A stretch of DNA of 10,133 nucleotides, from the IMG/VR virus record IMGVR_UViG_2695420701_000015; one strand, written 5' to 3'. Below, piece after piece: positions 3,139 through 10,121 of the stretch. Position 1 is the stretch's first letter. Every line of letters starts with the position of its first letter. This stretch comes from a virus (Duplodnaviria > Heunggongvirae > Uroviricota > Caudoviricetes). The notes beneath the pieces are model-generated. The model was not told the origin of the DNA. It did not search any database and saw only the letters and a list, made by a program, of their open reading frames with translations. The translations under genes were made by a program, and so were the position numbers.

Positions 3139-3450
3139 TGTATGATGGTGTTTTTGAGGTGCTCCAGTGGCTTCTGTTTCTATCAGCTGTCCCTCCTGTT
3201 CAGCTACTGACGGGGTGGTGCGTAACGGCAAAAGCACTGCCGGACATCAGCGCTATCTCTGCTCTCACTGCCGTAAAACATGGCAACTGCACGCATTATG
3301 GGCGTTGGCCTCAACACGATTTTACGTCACTTAAAAAACTCAGGCCGCAGTCGGTAACCTCGCGCATACAGCCGGGCAGTGACGTCATCGTCTGCGCGGA
3401 AATGGACGAACAGTGGGGCTATGTCGGGGCTAAATCGCGCCAGCGCTGGC
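3112..3450. mobile_element. IS1 remnant: intact left terminal inverted repeat, insA with internal deletion, start of insB; right part absent
   Basis: GGTGATGCTGCCAACTTACTGAT at 3112-3134 matches the IS1 left inverted repeat as I recall it. The following sequence encodes the InsA N-terminus ([41 protein letters not shown]). About 85 bp appear to be missing after 3291 relative to canonical IS1 (from memory). IS1-like sequence stops at 3450. The segment is visibly more GC-rich than its flanks. Confidence 0.8.
3167..3334 (+). pseudogene. insA: insA remnant (GTG start), frameshifted by the internal deletion
   Basis: Translation from GTG at 3167 gives the InsA N-terminus and then diverges after ...KTWQL into [14 protein letters not shown]-stop. 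The InsA C-terminal peptide [21 protein letters not shown] is encoded in a different frame. Confidence 0.7.
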
Positions 3451-3451
3451 A

Positions 3452-3684
3452 TAGGAATCTCTAGAGCAACTTATTACAGACTTGCTAAATAAGTTACTGA
3501 ATAGTTACATGGATGTAGCTGATATTTGGCTTTTTTGCCAAGGGGGTCACATAGCTGGTGTGACGGGTACTTAGCAGCTACAGACATCTGTCAGATATTT
3601 TTGAAGATTCGGGGAAGATGAGATTCAAAGAGGGCTAGTCATTTTTTATAAAAATTTTCAGATTCTGAAAAGTTACTGTACAGA
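3452..3684 (+). repeat. Copy C of the module: last about 13 codons of the recombinase gene plus downstream region
   Basis: TAGGAATCTCTAGAGCAACTTATTACAGACTTGCTAAATAA and the following about 190 bp match 549-587 and 1165-1356. It begins abruptly inside IS1-derived sequence. Confidence 0.85.
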
Positions 3685-4630
3685 TTTTGCACAATCCTAC
3701 CAAACCTCATAGTTGATTCGATTAGAAGCTAATCTCATAGAAAGCTCTGTAGCGAGTTTTAACCCCATTTTTAGGGGTAACCTATAGGGATGTACTAACC
3801 ACCTTAAAATAAAGGGGTAAAATCGCTTAGAATGCGTTACAGAGCGTCTGAGAAGCCATATTCACAGATTTTACTAAAACCTCAGACTTCTAAGTAGTCT
3901 TTTAACAGGAGGGGTTCCCCTATGGTCACATATCCCCTCTCTTTCCACTAAGTAAGCCTTAGCAGCACCTAAGCAACAATTGACTAACAGATTCGGTAGA
4001 GTCTATCTCATAGGTCAACTTCATAAACTCAGAGCTAAGTTACCTTGAAAGATTCTACCAAGAACTACACAGGTGTTATTTAGTCTGACTGTGAAGGGAT
4101 ATTTAACGGGAGAAGAGATACGATATAACCCGAAGGGAGAGTATCATCTTAACAATTATCTTAAGAATAAAACTGAAAAACTCTTAACAGATAACCACCT
4201 AGAAAGAAGGGAACGATAAGACCAGAGGTAGTGACCTGTTAAACAGGCTGTTTCAAAGTCTCTTAAAAGTCTGTTAAGTAAGGTCATGTGAACAATCTTA
4301 CCATTTTGTCAATGCTTTTGTCTTTGACCTAAATCAATAAAATGTATCGTTTGATATGCTTTTAAACAAAATAGCTAAAAAATCTTTTTTTAGAGGGGCG
4401 CTTCGCTTGGGGTCACTATGAATGATTTTTCTCTCGCTAAGAGAGCGCTTACAGAGGTCTTTCAAATCTCAATAGCCAGCCGAGGAACACAGGAAACCGA
4501 GGGAAGAAAAACTATTGTGATTACCTTGAACAAGGTCTGTAAAGGTCGTTTAAGAGGTCGGTTAAGAAAGGAGCTTCCCTCTCTGGGGTTATCGCTCTTC
4601 TCCCGATTAGTGGGGCGGTTAAGGGGGCTT

Positions 4631-4812
4631 GAAGTTATCTGTGAAGGTACTGGACAGTCTTATATATTGGGTGATTACAACTCGTTGAAAAATAAGCATT
4701 TTTAGAAGTTACTGTTAAGGTTGCAGAGTTGTCTGTGAAGAGACTTGTCAGTTCTCTATATATGGCTAATTACAACTTATTGAAAAATAAGAACTTTTAG
4801 AAATTACTGTCA
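4631..4812. repeat. Two imperfect tandem direct repeats, about 94-bp period
   Basis: TCTGTGAAG...TTGAAAAATAAG(C/A)A(T/C)TTTTAGAA(G/A)TTACTGT occurs twice, starting at 4638 and 4732, roughly 80 percent identical by eye. Confidence 0.8.
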
Positions 4813-4945
4813 GAGAGGTGAATGCTTGATAGACACAGCTTTCCGGTTCTGTCAAGCTATTTTTTAATAGATAGCACAAAATGCTAAAGACACCCCTGTA
4901 CCATAGACTTCTATCTGTCATCTCGTGCAGGGGTTTTGAAGGAGT

Positions 4946-5122
4946 TTAACGGGGGTCTGTGTGGTCGTTATCCTTAAGGTCAAGCGTCCATGTACGACCG
5001 AACAGTTTAAAGACAACAAGCACTCTGACGAGGACGTAGCGAAGTAGCAGGCCTGCAATCAGCCCAATACCTCCACCAGTCCATACATCAGGTGACCCCA
5101 GCTCAGGAGGGAGATTTACCAT
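4946..5122 (-). CDS. Candidate small membrane protein, 58 aa (MVNLPPELGSPDVWTGGGIGLIAGLLLRYVLVRVLVVFKLFGRTWTLDLKDNDHTDPR)
   Basis: Internal Met of ORF-track ORF 4946-5278 (-). AAGGA RBS 6 nt upstream on the minus strand. One predicted transmembrane helix with a charged C-terminus. The palindromic element 5137-5234 lies immediately upstream. Confidence 0.35.
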   Translation of the reverse strand: MVNLPPELGSPDVWTGGGIGLIAGLLLRYVLVRVLVVFKLFGRTWTLDLKDNDHTDPR

Positions 5123-5136
5123 TAGTTTTCCTTGTA

Positions 5137-5234
5137 AGACGCTCTCAATCGCATTCTGACACAAAAAGTACCTGACCTTATGAGTTGACCTGAAGAGGTC
5201 GTTTAACTCGTTACAGGGCGATTGAAGAGGTCTG
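5137..5234. repeat. Palindromic repeated element, copy 1 (terminal inverted repeats AGACGCTCTCAATCGC / GCGATTGAAGAGGTCTG)
   Basis: Both terminal arms are shared with copy 2 at 6765-6886; the central part differs. It sits immediately upstream of the RBS of the minus-strand small ORF. Confidence 0.8.
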
Positions 5235-5336
5235 TGTGCAATGCAAAATATGCGACCAAATACATAGCCACGCCTCATATTTTACTCTCCCCATAAACCC
5301 ATTATACCACAGATGTTACGAAAATGTTAAAAATAC

Positions 5337-5365
5337 TTGACATTAGTCTTTGAAAATGCTAATAT
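5337..5365 (+). promoter_or_regulatory. Candidate sigma70 promoter TTGACA-17 bp-TAATAT
   Basis: Consensus -35 and near-consensus -10 with 17-bp spacing, about 50 nt upstream of the 5417 ATG. The -10 is followed by TGTATATAT, as at the 7320 promoter. Confidence 0.55.
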
Positions 5366-5416
5366 TGTATATATAGGTTAACAGAATAATAACATCTTCT
5401 GAGAGTCAGAACATGA

Positions 5417-6764: not shown

Positions 6765-6886
6765 CAGACGCTCTCAATCGCATTCTAACGCAAAAAACTA
6801 TCTTATTTTAGGGTGGGTAATACCACTGTACAGGCTACCCCTGAAAAAGACTGTTTAGCTCGTTACAGAGCGATTGAGGAGGTCTG
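6765..6886. repeat. Palindromic repeated element, copy 2 (CAGACGCTCTCAATCGC ... GCGATTGAGGAGGTCTG)
   Basis: Same terminal arms as copy 1 and an internal palindromic core. It ends about 20 nt before the ATG of the 6907 gene on the plus strand. Confidence 0.8.
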
Positions 6887-6906
6887 GTAAAAAGGAGATT
6901 TTAAAA

Positions 6907-7230
6907 ATGAACGAATATGAATTACAGATTTTCATTGATAGCGACACTGCTATGATGGTGCAGGCTTTCGCTGATTCCGGTGTATCAATTGACCTTGATA
7001 AATTACTAAAGCTAATGGCTGAAAACTCAGAAGAAATTGAAGACTTTATTCAGGAAATTGAAACTGGTGAACCGCGTTTTATGTTTCCTGTTACCGACTC
7101 AAACATGAAGCGTCTTATTATCGAAGAAACGAACAAATACAGCGTTAGCCCTGAAAAATATCTCAAGGCGGCTATAGCAATTTTGTATAGCGATAATATT
7201 CTGGTGACGGATTCGAAGGTGGTGCATTAA
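6907..7230 (+). CDS. Hypothetical acidic small protein, 107 aa (ATG at 6907; the ORF track start at 6874 is a TTG inside the repeat element)
   Basis: AAGGAG RBS 9 nt upstream of ATG 6907. Asp/Glu-rich. Confidence 0.7.
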   Translation: MNEYELQIFIDSDTAMMVQAFADSGVSIDLDKLLKLMAENSEEIEDFIQEIETGEPRFMFPVTDSNMKRLIIEETNKYSVSPEKYLKAAIAILYSDNILVTDSKVVH

Positions 7231-7295
7231 TGGAATTGGTGATTATCTGTTTTGTATTGATTGGTATGATTGCAGGTGCATCTATTAAAGTATAA
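7230..7295 (+). CDS. Candidate 21-aa hydrophobic peptide MELVIICFVLIGMIAGASIKV
   Basis: ATG overlaps the stop of the 6907 gene (TAATG). Almost entirely hydrophobic, roughly one transmembrane span. Too short for the ORF track. Confidence 0.35.
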   Translation: MELVIICFVLIGMIAGASIKV

Positions 7296-7319
7296 ATGTT
7301 ACCAATCTGTTAAAAGCTG

Positions 7320-7348
7320 TTGACAAACAACCTTGAGCATGACATAAT
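7320..7348 (+). promoter_or_regulatory. Candidate sigma70 promoter TTGACA-17 bp-CATAAT
   Basis: Consensus -35 with 17-bp spacer, followed by TGTATATATGG as at the 5337 promoter. Confidence 0.5.
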
Positions 7349-7357
7349 TGTATATAT

Positions 7358-7385
7358 GGGGAGAGCAATTCTCTCTTATTTTTTC
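7358..7385 (+). terminator. Intrinsic-terminator-like hairpin (GGGAGAG-CAATT-CTCTC followed by TTATTTTTTC)
   Basis: Short stem followed by a T-run, 63 nt after the stop of the 7230-7295 ORF. It could terminate the 5417-7295 operon or attenuate transcripts from the 7320 promoter. Confidence 0.5.
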
Positions 7386-7516
7386 TTTCAATAATCCGAT
7401 GGATGGATATTCTGAGTTGGAAAGGTGCAATGCTTTTCGTCCTAGCCTTTCAGGTTGGTCTGAGAGGCTATCTCAAAAAGTCTTTGTTCATTCATTATTG
7501 AATCCTTTACAGCTTT

Positions 7517-7544
7517 GCCCTAATCATGAGTTAGGGCTTTCTTT
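7517..7544 (+). terminator. Hairpin GCCCTAA-N7-TTAGGGC followed by TTTCTTT
   Basis: Perfect 7-bp stem plus T-rich tail, read directly. Confidence 0.4.
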
Positions 7545-7613
7545 AAGAGTTTTTAAACAGAGCTTTTAAAGAAAGTTTTCCTGAAACTTCGTTAACGTTA
7601 TAAGCAAACCTCC

Positions 7614-7646
7614 AAAGCCCTTCACAGATTATGTTTAGGGCTTTTC
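7614..7646 (+). terminator. Hairpin AAAGCCC-N17-GGGCTTT with T-rich tail
   Basis: 7-bp stem read directly; shares the TTAGGGCTTT motif with the 7517 hairpin. Confidence 0.35.
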
Positions 7647-7717
7647 TTAATAGAGCATCTTTAATAAATCGTTAAGTCATCTTCTAAGTGTATTGGCGTT
7701 GAAGGTGCTCTATTAAG
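7646..7717 (+). promoter_or_regulatory. Perfect 12-bp inverted repeat CTTAATAGAGCA / TGCTCTATTAAG separated by 48 nt, just upstream of the RBS of the 7745 gene
   Basis: Read directly. The right arm ends 14 nt before AGAGG (7732-7736). Function unknown; could be an operator pair or a leader RNA stem. Confidence 0.5.
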
Positions 7718-7744
7718 AAATAACCACACTTAGAGGAAATTATA

Positions 7745-8455
7745 ATGACAAACGATTTATATATTAACGGTAAAAAGGTTGATAGCTTCGGAGACTGGTC
7801 ACCACAGGGTGAACATCCGCTACATACTATTCAGCGTCAAGAGCATGACAAGCGCATTGAGCTTGAGCAAGAGCTAAAGATGTCACCAAAGGTAATTTCC
7901 TTTGTGTCTCCTGAGCCTCAAGAAATGCCTGATATCTGCAAAACTGAAGCACTATTTGAGCTTGAGCGTGAATATTACCCAGCTTTAAAATCACAGCGTC
8001 TTAGACTTGATGTCGCTTACGATGCTGTTAAGAACTTCGAAGAAACCTCGAAACCTTCAGAATATGATATTGCTTACGAGATTAAGTCAAACCCGTTTAT
8101 CTATTATGAAGGAAACTTTAATGATGGTTTTGGTACAGCGATTGAAGACGTTCCTAAAGTTCTTCAAAGTATCCCTGAAGGGTTCCGGTTAATTGATGTC
8201 AGACAAGCATTAAGGGGTTCTGGTCAATTTATTCTGATGACTGATAAAACAGATGAAGAGATTCTTCAGTTAGCTGAAGCTAATTTGACTAAGCATTATT
8301 CCGGTAAACTGGATAAGTTAAAGCAAAAGCTTAAAAAAGAACTTGATACTATGAAAGAACTTGTTAGTGAATATGAGTCGCAGAAGAAGATTGCTTTGAT
8401 GGCTGATATTGAGCAGTTAACGAAGATTTCTCAGAAGTATAGCAAGGCTGTTTGA
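7745..8455 (+). CDS. Hypothetical protein, 236 aa, helical and charged C-terminal third
   Basis: AGAGG RBS 8 nt upstream. No family recognised. C-terminus rich in K/E/L, suggesting coiled coil. Confidence 0.75.
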   Translation: MTNDLYINGKKVDSFGDWSPQGEHPLHTIQRQEHDKRIELEQELKMSPKVISFVSPEPQEMPDICKTEALFELEREYYPALKSQRLRLDVAYDAVKNFEETSKPSEYDIAYEIKSNPFIYYEGNFNDGFGTAIEDVPKVLQSIPEGFRLIDVRQALRGSGQFILMTDKTDEEILQLAEANLTKHYSGKLDKLKQKLKKELDTMKELVSEYESQKKIALMADIEQLTKISQKYSKAV

Positions 8456-8477
8456 TTATGAATTAAAGAGGTGATTA

Positions 8478-8687
8478 ATGTTTGAAGAACGTTTAGAGAC
8501 TATTCGGTCTGTTTGTGAAAACTTAAAGTTACAAACTAAGCCAGCCTTAAGAATTAAAAACAAACGTCAAGTTATCACCTCACACAAACCAAAAACACGC
8601 AAGATTCCAAAGTGGTGTATTGACCGTATTCCTTCTGATGCTCAAATCATAGGTGAAACGGAATTACATTATCTTGTCCGACATTAA
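8478..8687 (+). CDS. Hypothetical basic small protein, 69 aa
   Basis: AAGAGG upstream of the ATG; Lys/Arg-rich; followed by a terminator. Confidence 0.6.
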   Translation: MFEERLETIRSVCENLKLQTKPALRIKNKRQVITSHKPKTRKIPKWCIDRIPSDAQIIGETELHYLVRH

Positions 8688-8710
8688 AAAAGAATTGGTT
8701 GGGTAAATAC

Positions 8711-8753
8711 GGGGAGAGATTATCGAGTGACATCGGTAGCTCTCCCTTTTTTT
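8711..8753 (+). terminator. Rho-independent terminator (GGGGAGAG ... CTCTCCC followed by T7)
   Basis: GC-rich inverted repeat (loop about 21 nt) immediately followed by TTTTTTT, 24 nt after the stop of the 8478-8687 ORF. Confidence 0.65.
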
Positions 8754-8843
8754 GTATGTGTGCTACGTGAAATCTGTAAAGCTAATACCCACACTGAAAA
8801 ATAGAATTTACGTACAACACGCTTAAAGAGGTGAAAAATATGA

Positions 8844-10121
8844 ATGGCACAATTTAAAGTTGATGATTTTCTGATTGAGTTAAGTTTTAACTCTCAGAAA
8901 GTTTTAAAAGGCTTGGAAAAAGCCGAGAAACAAACGATGCAGGTAGCATCACGAATTGAGAAGCGATTGAATAAGTCGTTTAGAGTTAATCCTACGCCTT
9001 TAAATGATTCTCTCAAACTAATGGAAAGAAATGTCGATAAAACTGTTTCCAAGATTGAGCAGCGTCTTAAAAACACTAGAGCGTTTAAGATTAAAACTGA
9101 AATTGAGGATACTTTAAAGCCACTTAGACAACCAAGACAGCCACGAATTAGCGGAAGCAGAGCAATCACAGCAGCTTACTCAGCGAATATGAGCAAGCTT
9201 CGTGACTTTAATCCTATGCTTGAGAAGTATTTTAAAAGCCAGTATTACAGCTTAAGCAGTAAATCCAAGACACTTGGAAACGAAACTTTTAATCGTGAGT
9301 TAGCAAAGTTAAATCAGTCTCTTCGTGAAACACTTTCTAAGTTTAACAAGACCACCAGCAAAAATAATCACAGTGAAAATGCTTCAAATAGTCTGGATGT
9401 ATTAGCTACGAGTGCAATCAAAGCAGGTACAGCCATTTATAGTTTTCAGACAGCCTTAGAAGCTTACAGGCGGATTATGGAGGTTGGTCTGAAAAAAGAA
9501 GCATCACAACGAGCGGCACAATTCGTTTTAGGTGATGAAGGTGCTAAACGAGCTACAGAATTTGTTAAGAATCTTGCTGATAGTAGTGGTGTAGACCAGA
9601 TTGAAACATTAAGCAGTTTTGCTAAGTTTTCCGCTGGTGCTGGTGATATGAATGCAGACCAGAAAGAATCCTTATTTTCTAATGTGATTGGTACATCCAG
9701 ATTAATGGGGCTAAGCACCGATGAAATTAACGGGATTTTAAAAGCTTTCGAGCAGATGGCATCTAAAGGAAAGATTCAGGCTGAAGAGCTACGCGGTCAA
9801 TTAGGTGACAGAATGGCAGGTGCTTTTCAGTTATTTGCCAGAAGTCTTGGGATGACTACGGAAGAATTAGACAAGGCCATGAAAGACGGTAAGGTTCTTT
9901 CTAAAGATGTTCTTCCTAAAGTATCCGCTGAAATGGGAAGGATGATTGATAAAGCTGGTGGATGGGAAAAGATTATTAACTCTACTCAGACGCAGTTAGG
10001 CCGCTTAAGTAATTCATGGAATAATAATCTGGCCTTAATGTTCGATGGTTCACAGGAAGGTTTAACAGACTTTACAAGGTCACTGACTAATTTACTTAAT
10101 TCACTAAATAGCTGCGCTTAA
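8844..10121 (+). CDS. Tape-measure-domain protein, 425 aa
   Basis: AAAGAGGTG RBS 10 nt upstream. Residues about 290-380 (GILKAFEQMASKGKIQAEELRGQLGDRMAGAFQLFARSLGMTTEELDKAMKDGKVLSKDVLPKVSAEMGR) match the conserved phage tail tape-measure N-terminal-type domain pattern as I recall it. Predicted helical N-terminal half. Complete ORF with TAA at 10119-10121. Confidence 0.8.
   Translation: MAQFKVDDFLIELSFNSQKVLKGLEKAEKQTMQVASRIEKRLNKSFRVNPTPLNDSLKLMERNVDKTVSKIEQRLKNTRAFKIKTEIEDTLKPLRQPRQPRISGSRAITAAYSANMSKLRDFNPMLEKYFKSQYYSLSSKSKTLGNETFNRELAKLNQSLRETLSKFNKTTSKNNHSENASNSLDVLATSAIKAGTAIYSFQTALEAYRRIMEVGLKKEASQRAAQFVLGDEGAKRATEFVKNLADSSGVDQIETLSSFAKFSAGAGDMNADQKESLFSNVIGTSRLMGLSTDEINGILKAFEQMASKGKIQAEELRGQLGDRMAGAFQLFARSLGMTTEELDKAMKDGKVLSKDVLPKVSAEMGRMIDKAGGWEKIINSTQTQLGRLSNSWNNNLALMFDGSQEGLTDFTRSLTNLLNSLNSCA

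Follow-up and report, generated by a model that had tools for sequence, protein, structure and literature searches.

A structured leader RNA that probably gates the tail operon of a phage-satellite-like island of Escherichia coli and Shigella

Comparison with 30 distinct relatives shows that the 450-base gap before the gene at 7745 of the 10,133-nt stretch of DNA analyzed here (the window) encodes, as judged from sequence, a functional plus-strand RNA. This interval is probably the gene for a structured leader RNA with which a phage-satellite-like island of about 12 kb gates its tail operon. A sigma-70 promoter at 7320-7348 would fire constitutively, with a start at about 7355, and the transcript would carry, in order, a protective hairpin (HP1), an invariant 20-nt hairpin (the core), and a covarying hairpin (HP4). 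Most transcripts would end at one of two terminator-like hairpins, the optional t1 or the universal t2, yielding a small RNA of about 190 to 290 nt. Those that read through would fold a stem of 22 to 29 bp, whose loop carries an anti-SD sequence that would also control translation of the first gene. The tail operon would be held off at these two levels until a signal lifts the blocks; candidates for that signal are an antitermination factor, RNA processing, and infection by a Felix O1-like helper.

We found neither an Rfam family nor an annotation or a paper that describes this leader RNA. An earlier note, made from the sequence of the window, had proposed a promoter-driven noncoding RNA or regulatory leader for the gene at 7745. 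All of the features it named were found where it had placed them, and the proposal itself is supported by a conserved promoter and structure, by compensatory changes on the plus strand, and by pairing between the loop and the Shine-Dalgarno (SD) site in three sequence versions. The features are as follows.

7296-7354, plus strand: conserved promoter block, with near-consensus -35 and -10 hexamers, conserved among relatives
7358-7376, plus strand: HP1, a 5'-terminal stem-loop (GGGAGAG/TCTCTCT), 96.8% paired, with compensatory changes
7420-7439, plus strand: invariant core, GAAAGGUGCAAUGCUUUUCG, identical in 29 of 31 distinct leaders
7442-7471, plus strand: HP4, a hairpin directly 3' of the core, with covariation
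7517-7544, plus strand: t1, an optional terminator-like hairpin (GCCCUAA/UUAGGGC, 7517-7537) followed by UUUCUUU
7537-7575, plus strand: hairpin CUUUCUUUAAGAG / CUUUUAAAGAAAG, a 13-nt inverted repeat (92%) present in the MFE structure
7614-7651, plus strand: t2, a universal hairpin, AAAGCCCU...AGGGCUUU (hairpin 7614-7644, U-tract 7642-7651)
7643-7720, plus strand: long stem-loop (arms 7643-7664 and 7699-7720, 34-nt loop), an inverted repeat with covariation
7680-7691, plus strand: anti-SD UCUUCUAAGUGU in the loop of the long stem, complementary to the SD at 7726-7737
7726-7747, plus strand: SD region ACACUUAGAGGA (7726-7737) and start codon (7745-7747)
7745-8455, plus strand: first gene of the operon, 236 aa, of no known family
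8478-8687: 69-aa gene, 3' of the 236-aa gene
8844 onward: tape-measure gene

A conserved promoter precedes the leader

The -35 hexamer TTGACA (7320-7325) and the -10 hexamer CATAAT (7343-7348) are separated by a 17-nt spacer, just as the earlier note had described. They match the consensus at 11 of 12 positions, and an upstream TG makes this an extended -10 (TG-n-CATAAT, 7340-7348). The site is the joint top-scoring sigma-70-like site within the window. Three phased TGTT(A/G)(A/C) repeats, at 7297, 7308, and 7318, lie in the same block. Across 16 relatives, identity in the promoter block is 86 to 97%, versus 59 to 92% in the flanking genes of the same relatives, so that the block is better conserved than either neighboring gene. 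Compared with the sigma-70-like promoters of the phage garuso, it showed no likeness past the consensus hexamers.

Promoter spacing alone places the putative transcript start at about 7355. As for a -10-like, pause-inducing element early in the transcribed region, a conserved TAT(A/G) stands directly before HP1, and a clear TAnnnT hexamer is not formed in every variant. Because no further sigma-70-like site was found on the plus strand between 7349 and 7962, transcripts of the operon must cross t1 and t2. A promoter-like site on the minus strand (7767-7739) was discarded, as its -10 is not kept in relatives.

Substitutions in relatives follow a plus-strand RNA structure

The plus-strand RNA from 7355 to 7760 has a predicted folding energy of -132.4 kcal/mol, compared to -88.4 ± 6.0 kcal/mol for dinucleotide-shuffled sequences (z = -7.4), none of which, out of 100, folded as well. 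The minus strand of the same interval gave z = -4.3, and two divergent relatives gave z = -5.7 and -7.5. We compared 31 distinct leaders, including 30 distinct relatives. Homologs conserve both the promoter and the structure, the hairpin at 7517-7537 being optional. Over five helices, 99.0% of cells are paired, and 17 pairs (139 cells) carry changes on both sides. The covariation score was 0.331 versus 0.187 for shuffled controls, with 0 of 500 shuffles as high. When the 3' partner was slid by 1 to 3 columns as a control, pairing fell to 40 to 58% and at most 4 pairs were changed on both sides. The five helices contain 243 G·U cells versus 20 A·C cells. This tolerance of G·U and not of A·C can be explained only by selection on a plus-strand RNA.

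The statement in the earlier note that the interval lacks a credible ORF stood up: the one candidate, a 73-aa ORF with a TTG start (7348-7569), is broken by non-triplet indels in relatives and was rejected as a gene. A search of the whole window, on both strands, with Rfam 15 covariance models (including C4/CI antisense RNA, EAR, riboswitches, and leaders) gave no match at E ≤ 1, and ARAGORN found no tRNA or tmRNA in the window.

The 5' domain combines an invariant core with two conserved hairpins

HP1 (helix 1) lies at +3 to +6 of the predicted transcript, and two of its pairs show compensatory change (GGAAGAG/CTCTTCC and AGAGAGA/TCTCTCT). The hairpin had been noted previously as terminator-like. 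It is indeed conserved, being kept in all variants, but the U-tract is not: some leaders have 5 to 7 U among the next 8 nt, and six (L015, L026, L027, L028, L029, and L035) have only 2. In this DNA, the 3' flank is TATTTTTT. Because the T-run is lost in several lineages, HP1 is not primarily a terminator and would terminate only where a U-run comes next. It is likely a 5' stabilizer.

The core forms a 7-bp hairpin (7420-7426 and 7432-7438) with the loop GCAAU. The two leaders that depart from the common sequence, L019 and L023, do so by single-base indels, and the count takes in 18 sequences that were not selected by the core motif. Within the core, an SD-like AGGUG lies 2 nt 5' of an invariant AUG at 7430. 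HP4 (helix 3) has 11 pairs, 99.1% paired, of which 5 are changed on both sides; its arms occur as UUCAG/CUGAG, AUUUAG/CUAGAU, and AUUUAG/CUAAAU. Each element has exactly one copy of the core and HP4. The 5' domain is exchanged by recombination irrespective of the 3' module and of which type of gene lies downstream.

Two terminator-like hairpins follow, one universal and one optional

The earlier note had pointed to two hairpins built on a repeated motif. Both are present, but the first, that of t1, is optional and is absent from about a third of the variants (10 of 31 leaders, e.g., L023-L026, L028, L030, L034, L037, and L038). The motif, TTAGGGCTTT, lies within a 19-nt direct repeat (7531-7549 and 7635-7653). 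Where present, t1 has a predicted energy of -9 to -11 kcal/mol, with 6 U among the next 8 nt. Its U-tract is also the 5' arm of the hairpin at 7537-7575, which is part of the optional t1 module, and together the two mirror the layout of t2 and the long stem.

In contrast to t1, t2 (helix 4) is present in all 31 leaders, at -11 to -20 kcal/mol with 4 to 7 U in the next 8 nt. In this DNA, it consists of AAAGCCC/GGGCTTT (7614-7644) followed by UUUUCUU. Its GCCCU/AGGGC is invariant, and an inner pair changes from C-G to U-A in 7 sequences. Relative to the predicted start, t1 spans +163 to +183 and t2 ends at +287 (its AGGGC arm); across variants, the distance from the start to t2 is 180 to 375 nt. 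Both elements have, at the sequence level, the makings of an intrinsic terminator, a G+C-rich hairpin with a U-tract directly 3', and we infer that they would terminate transcription. They are modest hairpins with interrupted U-tracts, and the U-tract of t2 is poor in L025 and L034. Pairing over 8 bp is also possible between the 3' arm of t1 and the 5' arm of t2.

A long stem presents a sequence complementary to the Shine-Dalgarno site

The 5' arm of the long stem (helix 5) overlaps the U-tract of t2. The perfect 12-bp inverted repeat with a 48-nt spacer reported in the earlier note (7646-7657 and 7706-7717) is real, but it is the core of a larger structure, in this DNA a 22-nt inverted repeat that is 91% complementary. 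We rejected its reading as a 12-bp operator-like palindrome: the repeat belongs to a 22- to 29-bp RNA stem that presents the anti-SD. In the alignment, 19 pairs of the stem are 99.2% paired and 9 have compensatory changes. The stem of 22 to 29 bp and the loop of 32 to 36 nt occur in three unrelated sequence versions, 3 to 17 nt 5' of the SD.

The predicted pairing of anti-SD and SD has an energy of -18.2 kcal/mol, versus -7.3 ± 2.6 kcal/mol for shuffled loops. The pairs are UCUUCUAAGUGU/ACACUUAGAGGA in version A, CUCUUCUAAG/CUUAGAAGAG in version B, and UUCACCUCU/AGAGGUGAA in version C. The loop always contains 10 to 13 nt complementary to the SD, with 9 to 13 contiguous pairs in the three versions (-13 to -22 kcal/mol, z down to -5.9), and in each of them the pairing beats that of shuffled loops. 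An SD-complementary sequence maintained by covariation, as in an SD-sequestering operator, was thus found in all three. Because anti-SD and SD are 35 to 50 nt apart, their co-inheritance may partly reflect simple linkage.

The SD is not paired in the predicted equilibrium structure, where the long stem wins in nested MFE folding, a model that leaves out pseudoknots. Nested thermodynamic folding leaves the SD unpaired with a mean probability of 0.1 to 0.8. With linkers down to about 3 to 5 nt, geometry suggests that the loop-SD helix could not sit on an intact stem of 22 to 29 bp. The anti-SD would repress translation of the 7745 gene.

Alternative roles of the leader

The unit from the promoter to t1 or t2 might instead be mainly a stand-alone, trans-acting sRNA of about 190 to 290 nt, with the stem downstream of it as a separate translational operator. 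In that case, the core or conserved single-stranded stretches would pair with mRNAs of the helper phage or the host. We regard this as possible and hold it tentatively. With its strong promoter and a hairpin at each end, of which the 3' one has a U-tail, the unit is built as a stable sRNA would be; the 20-nt core is invariant amid varying neighbors, and the independent recombination of the 5' domain fits as well. There are also precedents in the SviR RNA of PLE (bioRxiv 10.1101/2022.04.08.487710) and in StxS (PMC7547250). However, the longest complementarity to Felixounavirus garuso is 15 nt, and 5 of 40 shuffled leaders reach at least 15 nt; within the window, no complementarity to the leader exceeded that of shuffled controls. 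The sRNA role is, moreover, compatible with a role in cis, and the operon has no other recognizable promoter.

The long stem is a candidate RNase III substrate. Duplexes of about two helical turns are substrates of E. coli RNase III, and the lambda N leader is processed in this way. It is possible, and we hold it as tentatively as the sRNA role, that the stem is chiefly such a processing site, at which the leader and the anti-SD loop would be cut off the mRNA, and that cleavage would set the translation rate and the stability of the tail-operon mRNA as at the lambda N leader site. In its favor, a nearly perfect stem and a loop of conserved size are kept while their sequence is not, immediately 5' of the SD. 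Against this, cleavage is not reliably predictable from sequence, RNase III is constitutive, so that processing alone gives no regulation, and conservation of the anti-SD would be left unexplained.

The core and HP4 (7420-7471) could also be a cis-acting, put- or nut-like signal for processive antitermination. By itself or together with a protein from the helper or the satellite, it would alter RNA polymerase such that t1 and t2 no longer stop it. We consider this unlikely. Two adjacent stem-loops of about 57 nt, one invariant in sequence and the other covarying, do lie in single copy between a strong promoter and the terminators. However, when the HK022 genome was searched with a covariance model of the core and HP4, the best match scored 10 bits (E of ~1), and none was on the relevant strand. 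The leader has no boxA, with zero ungapped matches to UGCUCUUUAACAA within 3 mismatches, and the window has no gene for a protein of the Q or N families. Elsewhere in the window, 6 boxA-like matches were found versus 6.5 expected by chance, and a resemblance to boxA in UGCUCUAUUAAGAA (7707-7720) was dismissed as chance-level, since it needs an indel.

Ribosome-mediated attenuation is highly improbable. Here the AGGUG and the AUG at 7430 would start a leader mini-ORF, the translation of which picks among pairings of four GCCC/GGGC arms (7517, 7531, 7614, and 7634). The SD-like motif just before an invariant AUG and the 8-bp pairing between the t1 3' arm and the t2 5' arm would suit a trp-like layout of 1:2, 2:3, and 3:4 pairings, but the spacing from SD to AUG is short, and arms 1 and 2, which make up t1, are missing in about a third of the variants. 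The ORF ranges from 5 to 58 codons, stops at unrelated positions, and conserves only MLF(V/A); substitutions track base pairs, not codons. We rejected a leader peptide of the trp type because the ORF from the invariant AUG is not conserved. That the repeats act as DNA (a replication origin, a packaging site, or a binding site for a recombinase or repressor) is improbable in the extreme: a satellite must have ori and pac sites, and inverted repeats abound in this AT-rich interval, but there are no iterons, the stems keep their pairing between versions of wholly different sequence, and the excess of G·U over A·C cells described above argues against it.

The leader occupies a fixed position on a phage-satellite-like island

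The promoter and structure occur in about 477 of 5,426 complete E. coli genomes (~9%), always in the same position. The element is also found in Shigella sonnei and is unannotated in every record listed; S. sonnei Ss046 and 53G and E. coli KBN10P04869 are among the carriers. In 17 relatives from E. coli genome records, the gene order is constant: a gene of ~107 aa, a tiny peptide ORF, the leader, a gene of 234 to 236 aa, a gene of ~70 aa, and the tape-measure gene. The peptide encoded directly 5' of the leader is 21 aa long. In this DNA, the operon consists of the 236-aa, 69-aa, tape-measure, and baseplate genes. A Felixounavirus protein shares 78% identity with the baseplate protein of the island, and the host element is best read as an E. 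coli/Shigella phage-satellite-like island of about 12 kb related to Felix O1-like phages.

The ~107-aa upstream protein matched neither a Q family nor anything else in Pfam, NCBIfam, or PHROG, and no antiterminator was found among the upstream proteins, to which these databases assign no function. AlphaFold models of the 107-aa protein (pLDDT 45) and the 236-aa protein (pLDDT 48) were unusable. A "transposase" label on the 236-aa protein was rejected; it is unsupported by Pfam, PHROGs, NCBIfam, and PDB, and tblastn gave no phage match.

A blastn search of the region against deposited phages and plasmids returned no match, and for the promoter and 5' domain none at E ≤ 10, chance matches to unrelated phages aside. 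A search guided by the proteins, in which each species was represented by one genome and viral contigs were included, found only Escherichia-type elements of the same family and no distant relatives. Four carrier-genome accessions are absent from the list of E. coli satellites with TMP/baseplate genes of Barth et al. 2023, and no description of the leader RNA was found in the literature on SpLE2, yecE, Esr41, Pas sRNAs, and Felixounavirus satellites.

Comparison with known leaders

The lambdoid late promoter PR' is always active and is terminated just downstream in lysogens, yielding the StxS sRNA (PMC7547250). Like the lambdoid PR'/6S-StxS/tR' unit, the element described here has a strong, constitutive sigma-70 promoter (here predicted) at the end of an early operon and a short, terminated, structured transcript before structural genes, the by-product of which can be an sRNA. 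Promoter, putative terminator within about 200 to 300 nt, and tape-measure operon follow one another as in PR'-qut-tR'. In contrast to the lambdoid unit, neither a Q family nor a recognizable Q-binding element turned up here, a putative translational operator is added to the one or two terminator-like hairpins, and the setting is an island of ~12 kb related to lytic Felix O1-like phages rather than a lambdoid prophage. The lambda pL leader likewise has a promoter, a small conserved hairpin (nutL), and a long stem, cleaved by RNase III, immediately 5' of the first-gene SD, just upstream of the N start. Here, however, there are no boxA and boxB, the putative terminators are inside the leader and not after the first gene, and the loop carries an anti-SD. 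The put RNAs of HK022, which act in cis without a factor, are also two adjacent stem-loops downstream of a promoter and upstream of terminators, but no homology to them was detected with the 57-nt covariance model of the leader.

Among satellites, PLE of Vibrio cholerae encodes an sRNA, SviR, with a conserved promoter and terminator, plus a regulatory 5' UTR (bioRxiv 10.1101/2022.04.08.487710). SviR and the orf2-5 5' UTR resemble the present case in being satellite encoded in an ORF-free intergenic region, where one promoter and one intrinsic terminator delimit an RNA of some 200 nt (here predicted). Promoter and terminator are the best-conserved parts, and inverted repeats are kept by compensatory changes. 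A large serine recombinase serves both islands, and the helper is in each case a lytic myovirus (here proposed). The two cases differ in host and in sequence, in the promoter, which is phage induced for SviR but looks constitutive here, and in that no operon has its translation start joined to SviR. The immunity leader of P4 (PLE promoter, CI RNA) is again from an E. coli satellite; a constitutive promoter feeds an untranslated leader in which complementary motifs are repeated, and the genes downstream stay off through early termination, as would be the case here. Unlike those of P4/C4, the GCCC/GGGC repeats here form local terminator-like hairpins with no sign of a processed antisense RNA, and the Rfam C4 antisense RNA family did not match the window at E ≤ 1.

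Implications for a proposed satellite-helper conflict

A more specific version of the gated leader, which we think quite unlikely, is a helper-sensing, three-layer RNA switch of uncharacterized E. coli/Shigella satellites that parasitize Felix O1-like lytic phages, with no described homolog. In this version, a phage or host factor would dock at the invariant hairpin, or the hairpin would itself be put-like and factor independent, and in either case polymerase would be switched to pass t1 and t2. The helper would be acted on in trans by the abundant terminated RNA, and a substitute tape-measure and baseplate module would become translatable once the anti-SD loop is removed, RNase III being one candidate for that step.

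For the gated leader as such, the 17 covarying pairs make this a well-supported new structured-RNA family that could join Rfam. Its design is uncommon: one tract serves both as the U-run of a terminator-like hairpin and as the 5' arm of a long stem, and the loop of that stem shows an anti-SD. The leader is a case in which coupling between transcriptional and translational gating can be tested. It would mark the control point of a tape-measure/baseplate operon on a small island. Should Felix O1-like phages, which are in wide use for typing and biocontrol, turn out to have this island as their satellite, the leader probably decides the timing of phage interference or hijack and would be an entry point to a satellite-helper conflict in E. 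coli comparable to that of PLE and ICP1.

A conserved promoter within an unannotated gap

The ORF-poor gap upstream of the gene at 7745 was matched in 477 of 5,426 complete Escherichia coli genomes (70 to 96% identity, distant blastn) and is without annotation in every one of them. The TTGACA-17-CATAAT promoter proposed in the earlier note is present, matches the consensus at 11 of 12 positions, and shares the top score among sites in the window in our promoter scan. The surrounding block, 7296 to 7354, is 86 to 97% identical in all 16 relatives compared from the blastn hits, versus 59 to 89% and 63 to 92% for the genes on either side of the leader. The features of the leader are as follows.

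Features of the leader (window coordinates)
7320-7325 and 7343-7348, + strand: promoter (TTGACA, 17-nt spacer, CATAAT), with TG ahead of the -10 hexamer
7358-7376, + strand: HP1, a hairpin from the terminator scan, followed by TATTTTTT
7420-7439, + strand: invariant core GAAAGGUGCAAUGCUUUUCG, a 7-bp hairpin with loop GCAAU
7442-7471, + strand: HP4, a hairpin directly 3' of the core, with strong covariation
7517-7537, + strand: t1, a hairpin from the terminator scan, followed by TTTCTTT
7537-7575, + strand: t1 partner hairpin, using the t1 U-tract as its 5' arm
7614-7626 and 7632-7644, + strand: arms of t2, from the repeat finder, with a UUUUCUU tract
7643-7664 and 7699-7720, + strand: long stem, a 22-nt inverted repeat, 91% complementary (repeat finder)

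Three TGTT(A/G)(A/C) repeats start at 7297, 7308, and 7318 (7297 to 7323), spaced 10 to 11 bp apart, with the third overlapping the -35 hexamer. All three are kept in 17 of 17 relatives aligned there, and they may form an array for regulator binding or an UP-like element. A hydrophobic 21-codon mini-ORF, MELVIICFVLIGMIAGASIKV, occupies 7230 to 7295 and shares bases with the upstream gene's stop codon (TAATG). A membrane-like peptide of 21 to 27 aa occupies the same spot right before the leader promoter in relatives, in two very different sequence versions.

The leader folds and covaries as a plus-strand RNA

The earlier note suggested that 7320 to 7744 could encode a non-coding RNA and proposed RNAfold and Rfam as checks. 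Folding agreed with this suggestion: plus-strand RNA 7355 to 7760 reached -132.4 kcal/mol, versus -88.4 ± 6.0 for dinucleotide shuffles (z = -7.4), and the minus strand gave a z of -4.3. Two divergent leaders, a minimal 310-nt variant and the O157:H7 variant, gave z scores of -5.7 and -7.5, respectively. The Rfam comparison matched no family in the window, nor was a tRNA or tmRNA found there.

We compared 31 distinct leaders, 18 from blastn matches and 13 from a scan of viral contigs with the core motif. RNAalifold and explicit pair counting backed five helices, namely HP1, the core hairpin, HP4, t2, and the long stem. Pairing holds in 99.0% of the cells of these helices, and changes on both sides affect 17 pairs (139 cells). 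The covariation score was 0.331 versus 0.187 for shuffled alignments, and none of 500 shuffles reached 0.331. When the 3' partner was shifted by 1 to 3 columns as a control, pairing fell to 40 to 58%, with both-sided changes in at most 4 pairs. This covariation rules out a chance origin of the structure. Among paired cells, G·U outnumbers A·C 243 to 20; therefore, the functional molecule is the plus-strand RNA, and a DNA-level role of the repeats is disfavored.

The 5' half contains an invariant hairpin

HP1 lies at +3 to +6 of the predicted transcript in every variant, with an extra 5' hairpin inserted ahead of it in some, and shows compensatory changes. The terminator-like hairpin that the earlier note placed just after the promoter is thus real as a hairpin, but not as a conserved terminator, because the U-run is kept in only part of the family (the 8 nt after HP1 contain 5 to 7 U's in some leaders and 2 in other leaders). 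Its conserved feature is a 5'-terminal stem-loop, as in RNAs shielded from 5'-end-dependent decay, and it may have a corresponding protective role.

The core is unchanged across leaders save for single-base indels in two sequences, and a covariance model of the core and HP4 found exactly one copy per element. The core can also be read as AGGUG-CA-AUG. However, ORFs starting at this AUG run for 5 to 58 codons with scattered stops, which excludes a conserved leader peptide and, with the loss of t1 from about one-third of variants, disfavors ribosome-mediated attenuation. For whatever relieves termination, the evident candidate for a docking site is the core hairpin. Searches for homology to the antitermination elements put and boxA found none, and the core-HP4 model had no match in HK022.

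Terminator-like hairpins adjoin a long stem whose loop carries an anti-SD

Both hairpins that the earlier note had built on the repeated motif TTAGGGCTTT were found, at 7517 to 7537 (t1) and 7614 to 7644 (t2); the motif is part of a 19-nt direct repeat at 7531 to 7549 and 7635 to 7653. Together with its partner hairpin, t1 forms an optional module. All variants contain t2 (-11 to -20 kcal/mol, with 4 to 7 U's in the following 8 nt); its GCCCU/AGGGC is invariant, one inner pair changes from C-G to U-A, and complete hairpins are inserted in its loop in some lineages. Homologues, to which the earlier note had looked as a test, thus keep HP1, t2, and the long stem and in part lack t1.

The long stem has the U-tract of t2 as its 5' arm. 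The 12-bp perfect inverted repeat described previously is real but is only the core of the 22-nt repeat that makes up this stem. The stem occurs in three unrelated sequence versions, each with 22 to 29 bp and a loop of 32 to 36 nt, and in each the loop contains 9 to 13 nt complementary to the Shine-Dalgarno (SD) region of the downstream gene.

Loop anti-SD sequences and their SD partners
Version A: UCUUCUAAGUGU with ACACUUAGAGGA
Version B: CUCUUCUAAG with CUUAGAAGAG
Version C: UUCACCUCU with AGAGGUGAA

These duplexes reach -13 to -22 kcal/mol (z = -1.5 to -5.9 versus shuffled loops). In nested folding, the long stem (-30 to -46 kcal/mol for the module) outcompetes the anti-SD/SD helix, leaving the SD largely unpaired. 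The linker from stem to SD is as short as about 3 to 5 nt, and by this geometric estimate the loop-SD helix is incompatible with an intact stem in several variants. The stem and the loop-SD helix are probably alternative states. Stems of 22 to 29 bp are natural substrates of RNase III, which cuts the lambda N leader in this way. By analogy, cleavage at the long stem would split the anti-SD loop from the mRNA. Alternatively, a factor bound to the U-rich 5' arm would release the anti-SD to shut the ribosome site.

A model for control of the tail operon

Sequence comparison establishes a conserved promoter, conserved plus-strand structure, terminator-like hairpins ahead of the operon, and an anti-SD and SD that covary. 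In the model that we propose, the promoter would be constitutively active, and the majority of transcripts would end at t1 or t2, yielding a stable RNA of about 190 to 290 nt. Expression of the tail operon would require read-through of t1/t2, since the promoter scan found no further sigma-70-like site on the plus strand from 7349 to 7962, and read-through transcripts would face a second control at translation initiation. Family searches of the window proteins detected no known antiterminator, whether Q, N, or another, encoded near the leader. A purely trans-acting sRNA made from the 5' unit is also compatible with these observations, although neither the window nor one Felixounavirus genome yielded an above-chance target.

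The lambdoid late promoter PR' is constantly active, but in lysogens its transcripts end a short way downstream, with the StxS sRNA as a by-product (PMC7547250). The predicted layout of the leader matches this arrangement of promoter, near-downstream termination, and by-product RNA, and it also matches the satellite RNA regulators SviR and the PLE 5' UTR of Vibrio cholerae (10.1101/2022.04.08.487710). The promoter-proximal terminated leader, SD occlusion, and the long processing-type stem are all known types of parts. No homologue of the leader family was found in Rfam, deposited phages or plasmids, or the literature searched. Its distinctive traits are a terminator U-tract that also forms one side of a long stem whose loop displays an anti-SD, the invariant 20-nt hairpin, and cassette-like swapping of hairpin modules.

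The leader is a mosaic within a candidate satellite island

Alignments break near 7509, 7629, and 7645 in the blastn matches, indicating that the gap is a mosaic of modules. Complete hairpin cassettes of 19 to 30 nt are variably present among the aligned leaders, whose comparison points to evolution by gain or swap of complete stem-loops.

Hairpin cassettes (columns of leader alignment A1)
Columns 1-27: 5'-terminal GGATAG/CTATCC hairpin (e.g., L019, L021, L022, L025, L039)
Columns 106-133: GGTATGTTC...GAACAT hairpin preceding the core (e.g., L013, L022, L024, L026)
Columns 358-387: extension within the t2 loop (e.g., L013, L018, L022)

The window belongs to an island of about 12 to 13 kb that occurs in many E. 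coli strains and in Shigella sonnei (e.g., Ss046, CP000038). It is located either within yecE or between yciI and tonB, with a large serine recombinase at its end. Gene order is constant: an early operon ending with a gene of about 107 aa, a hydrophobic mini-ORF of 21 to 27 aa, the unannotated gap (450 to 630 nt), and then a 234- to 236-aa gene, a gene of about 70 aa, a tape-measure gene, and a "baseplate" gene. In S. sonnei chromosomes (L001 to L010, around 8470 to 9230), an IS1 copy lies inside the gene matching 6874 to 7230, and further IS elements break the tape-measure and baseplate region; the leader is intact. The island is decaying in this lineage.

Several other features of the window were observed. 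A complete DNA invertase/resolvase gene (36 to 587) is accompanied by a truncated second copy (808 to 1164), whose 118 C-terminal residues match the first but for one residue, which suggests local duplication or rearrangement. A G+C peak at 3151 to 3450 (55.7% versus about 37 to 40% around it), assigned to a long stretch with few credible ORFs (3465 to 5400), may be a foreign fragment or gene remnant. Back-to-back strong promoter-like sites at 5301 to 5365, TTAACA-18-TATAAT (minus strand) and TTGACA-17-TAATAT (plus strand), lie between a 110-aa ORF (4946 to 5278, minus strand) and the early operon from 5417 and look like a repressor/early-operon switch region.

The 236-aa protein (7745 to 8455) had no match in Pfam, PHROG, NCBIfam, or PDB and no tblastn match in phages. 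The name "transposase" that it bears in many RefSeq/NCBI records is unsupported by these four databases and looks like a propagated annotation error. Its gene precedes the 70-aa and tape-measure genes, where Felixounavirus has its tape-measure chaperones.

Compared with Felixounavirus tape measures, the N terminus of the tape measure (8844 to 10121) shows 31 to 33% identity across 97% of its length. The baseplate protein of a related island (L012, 11814 to 12578) is 78.5% identical to gp119 of Felixounavirus garuso (L055, 34229 to 35029), whose gene comes after the phage's own tape-measure gene. The full island gene tables that we examined list no capsid or terminase gene, and none matched among the window proteins scanned. 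Because it combines a Felixounavirus-like tape measure and baseplate with no capsid or terminase, the island looks, from its gene content, like an element that depends on lytic Felix O1-like phages as their satellite or parasite and that has so far gone undescribed. The E. coli satellites noted by Barth et al., which carry genes for capsid, tape measure, and baseplate, are different elements (PMC10448857), and four carrier-genome accessions that we checked are absent from the E. coli TMP/baseplate satellite list of Barth et al. 2023 (PMC10448857). In its logic, the island resembles the PLE of V. cholerae.
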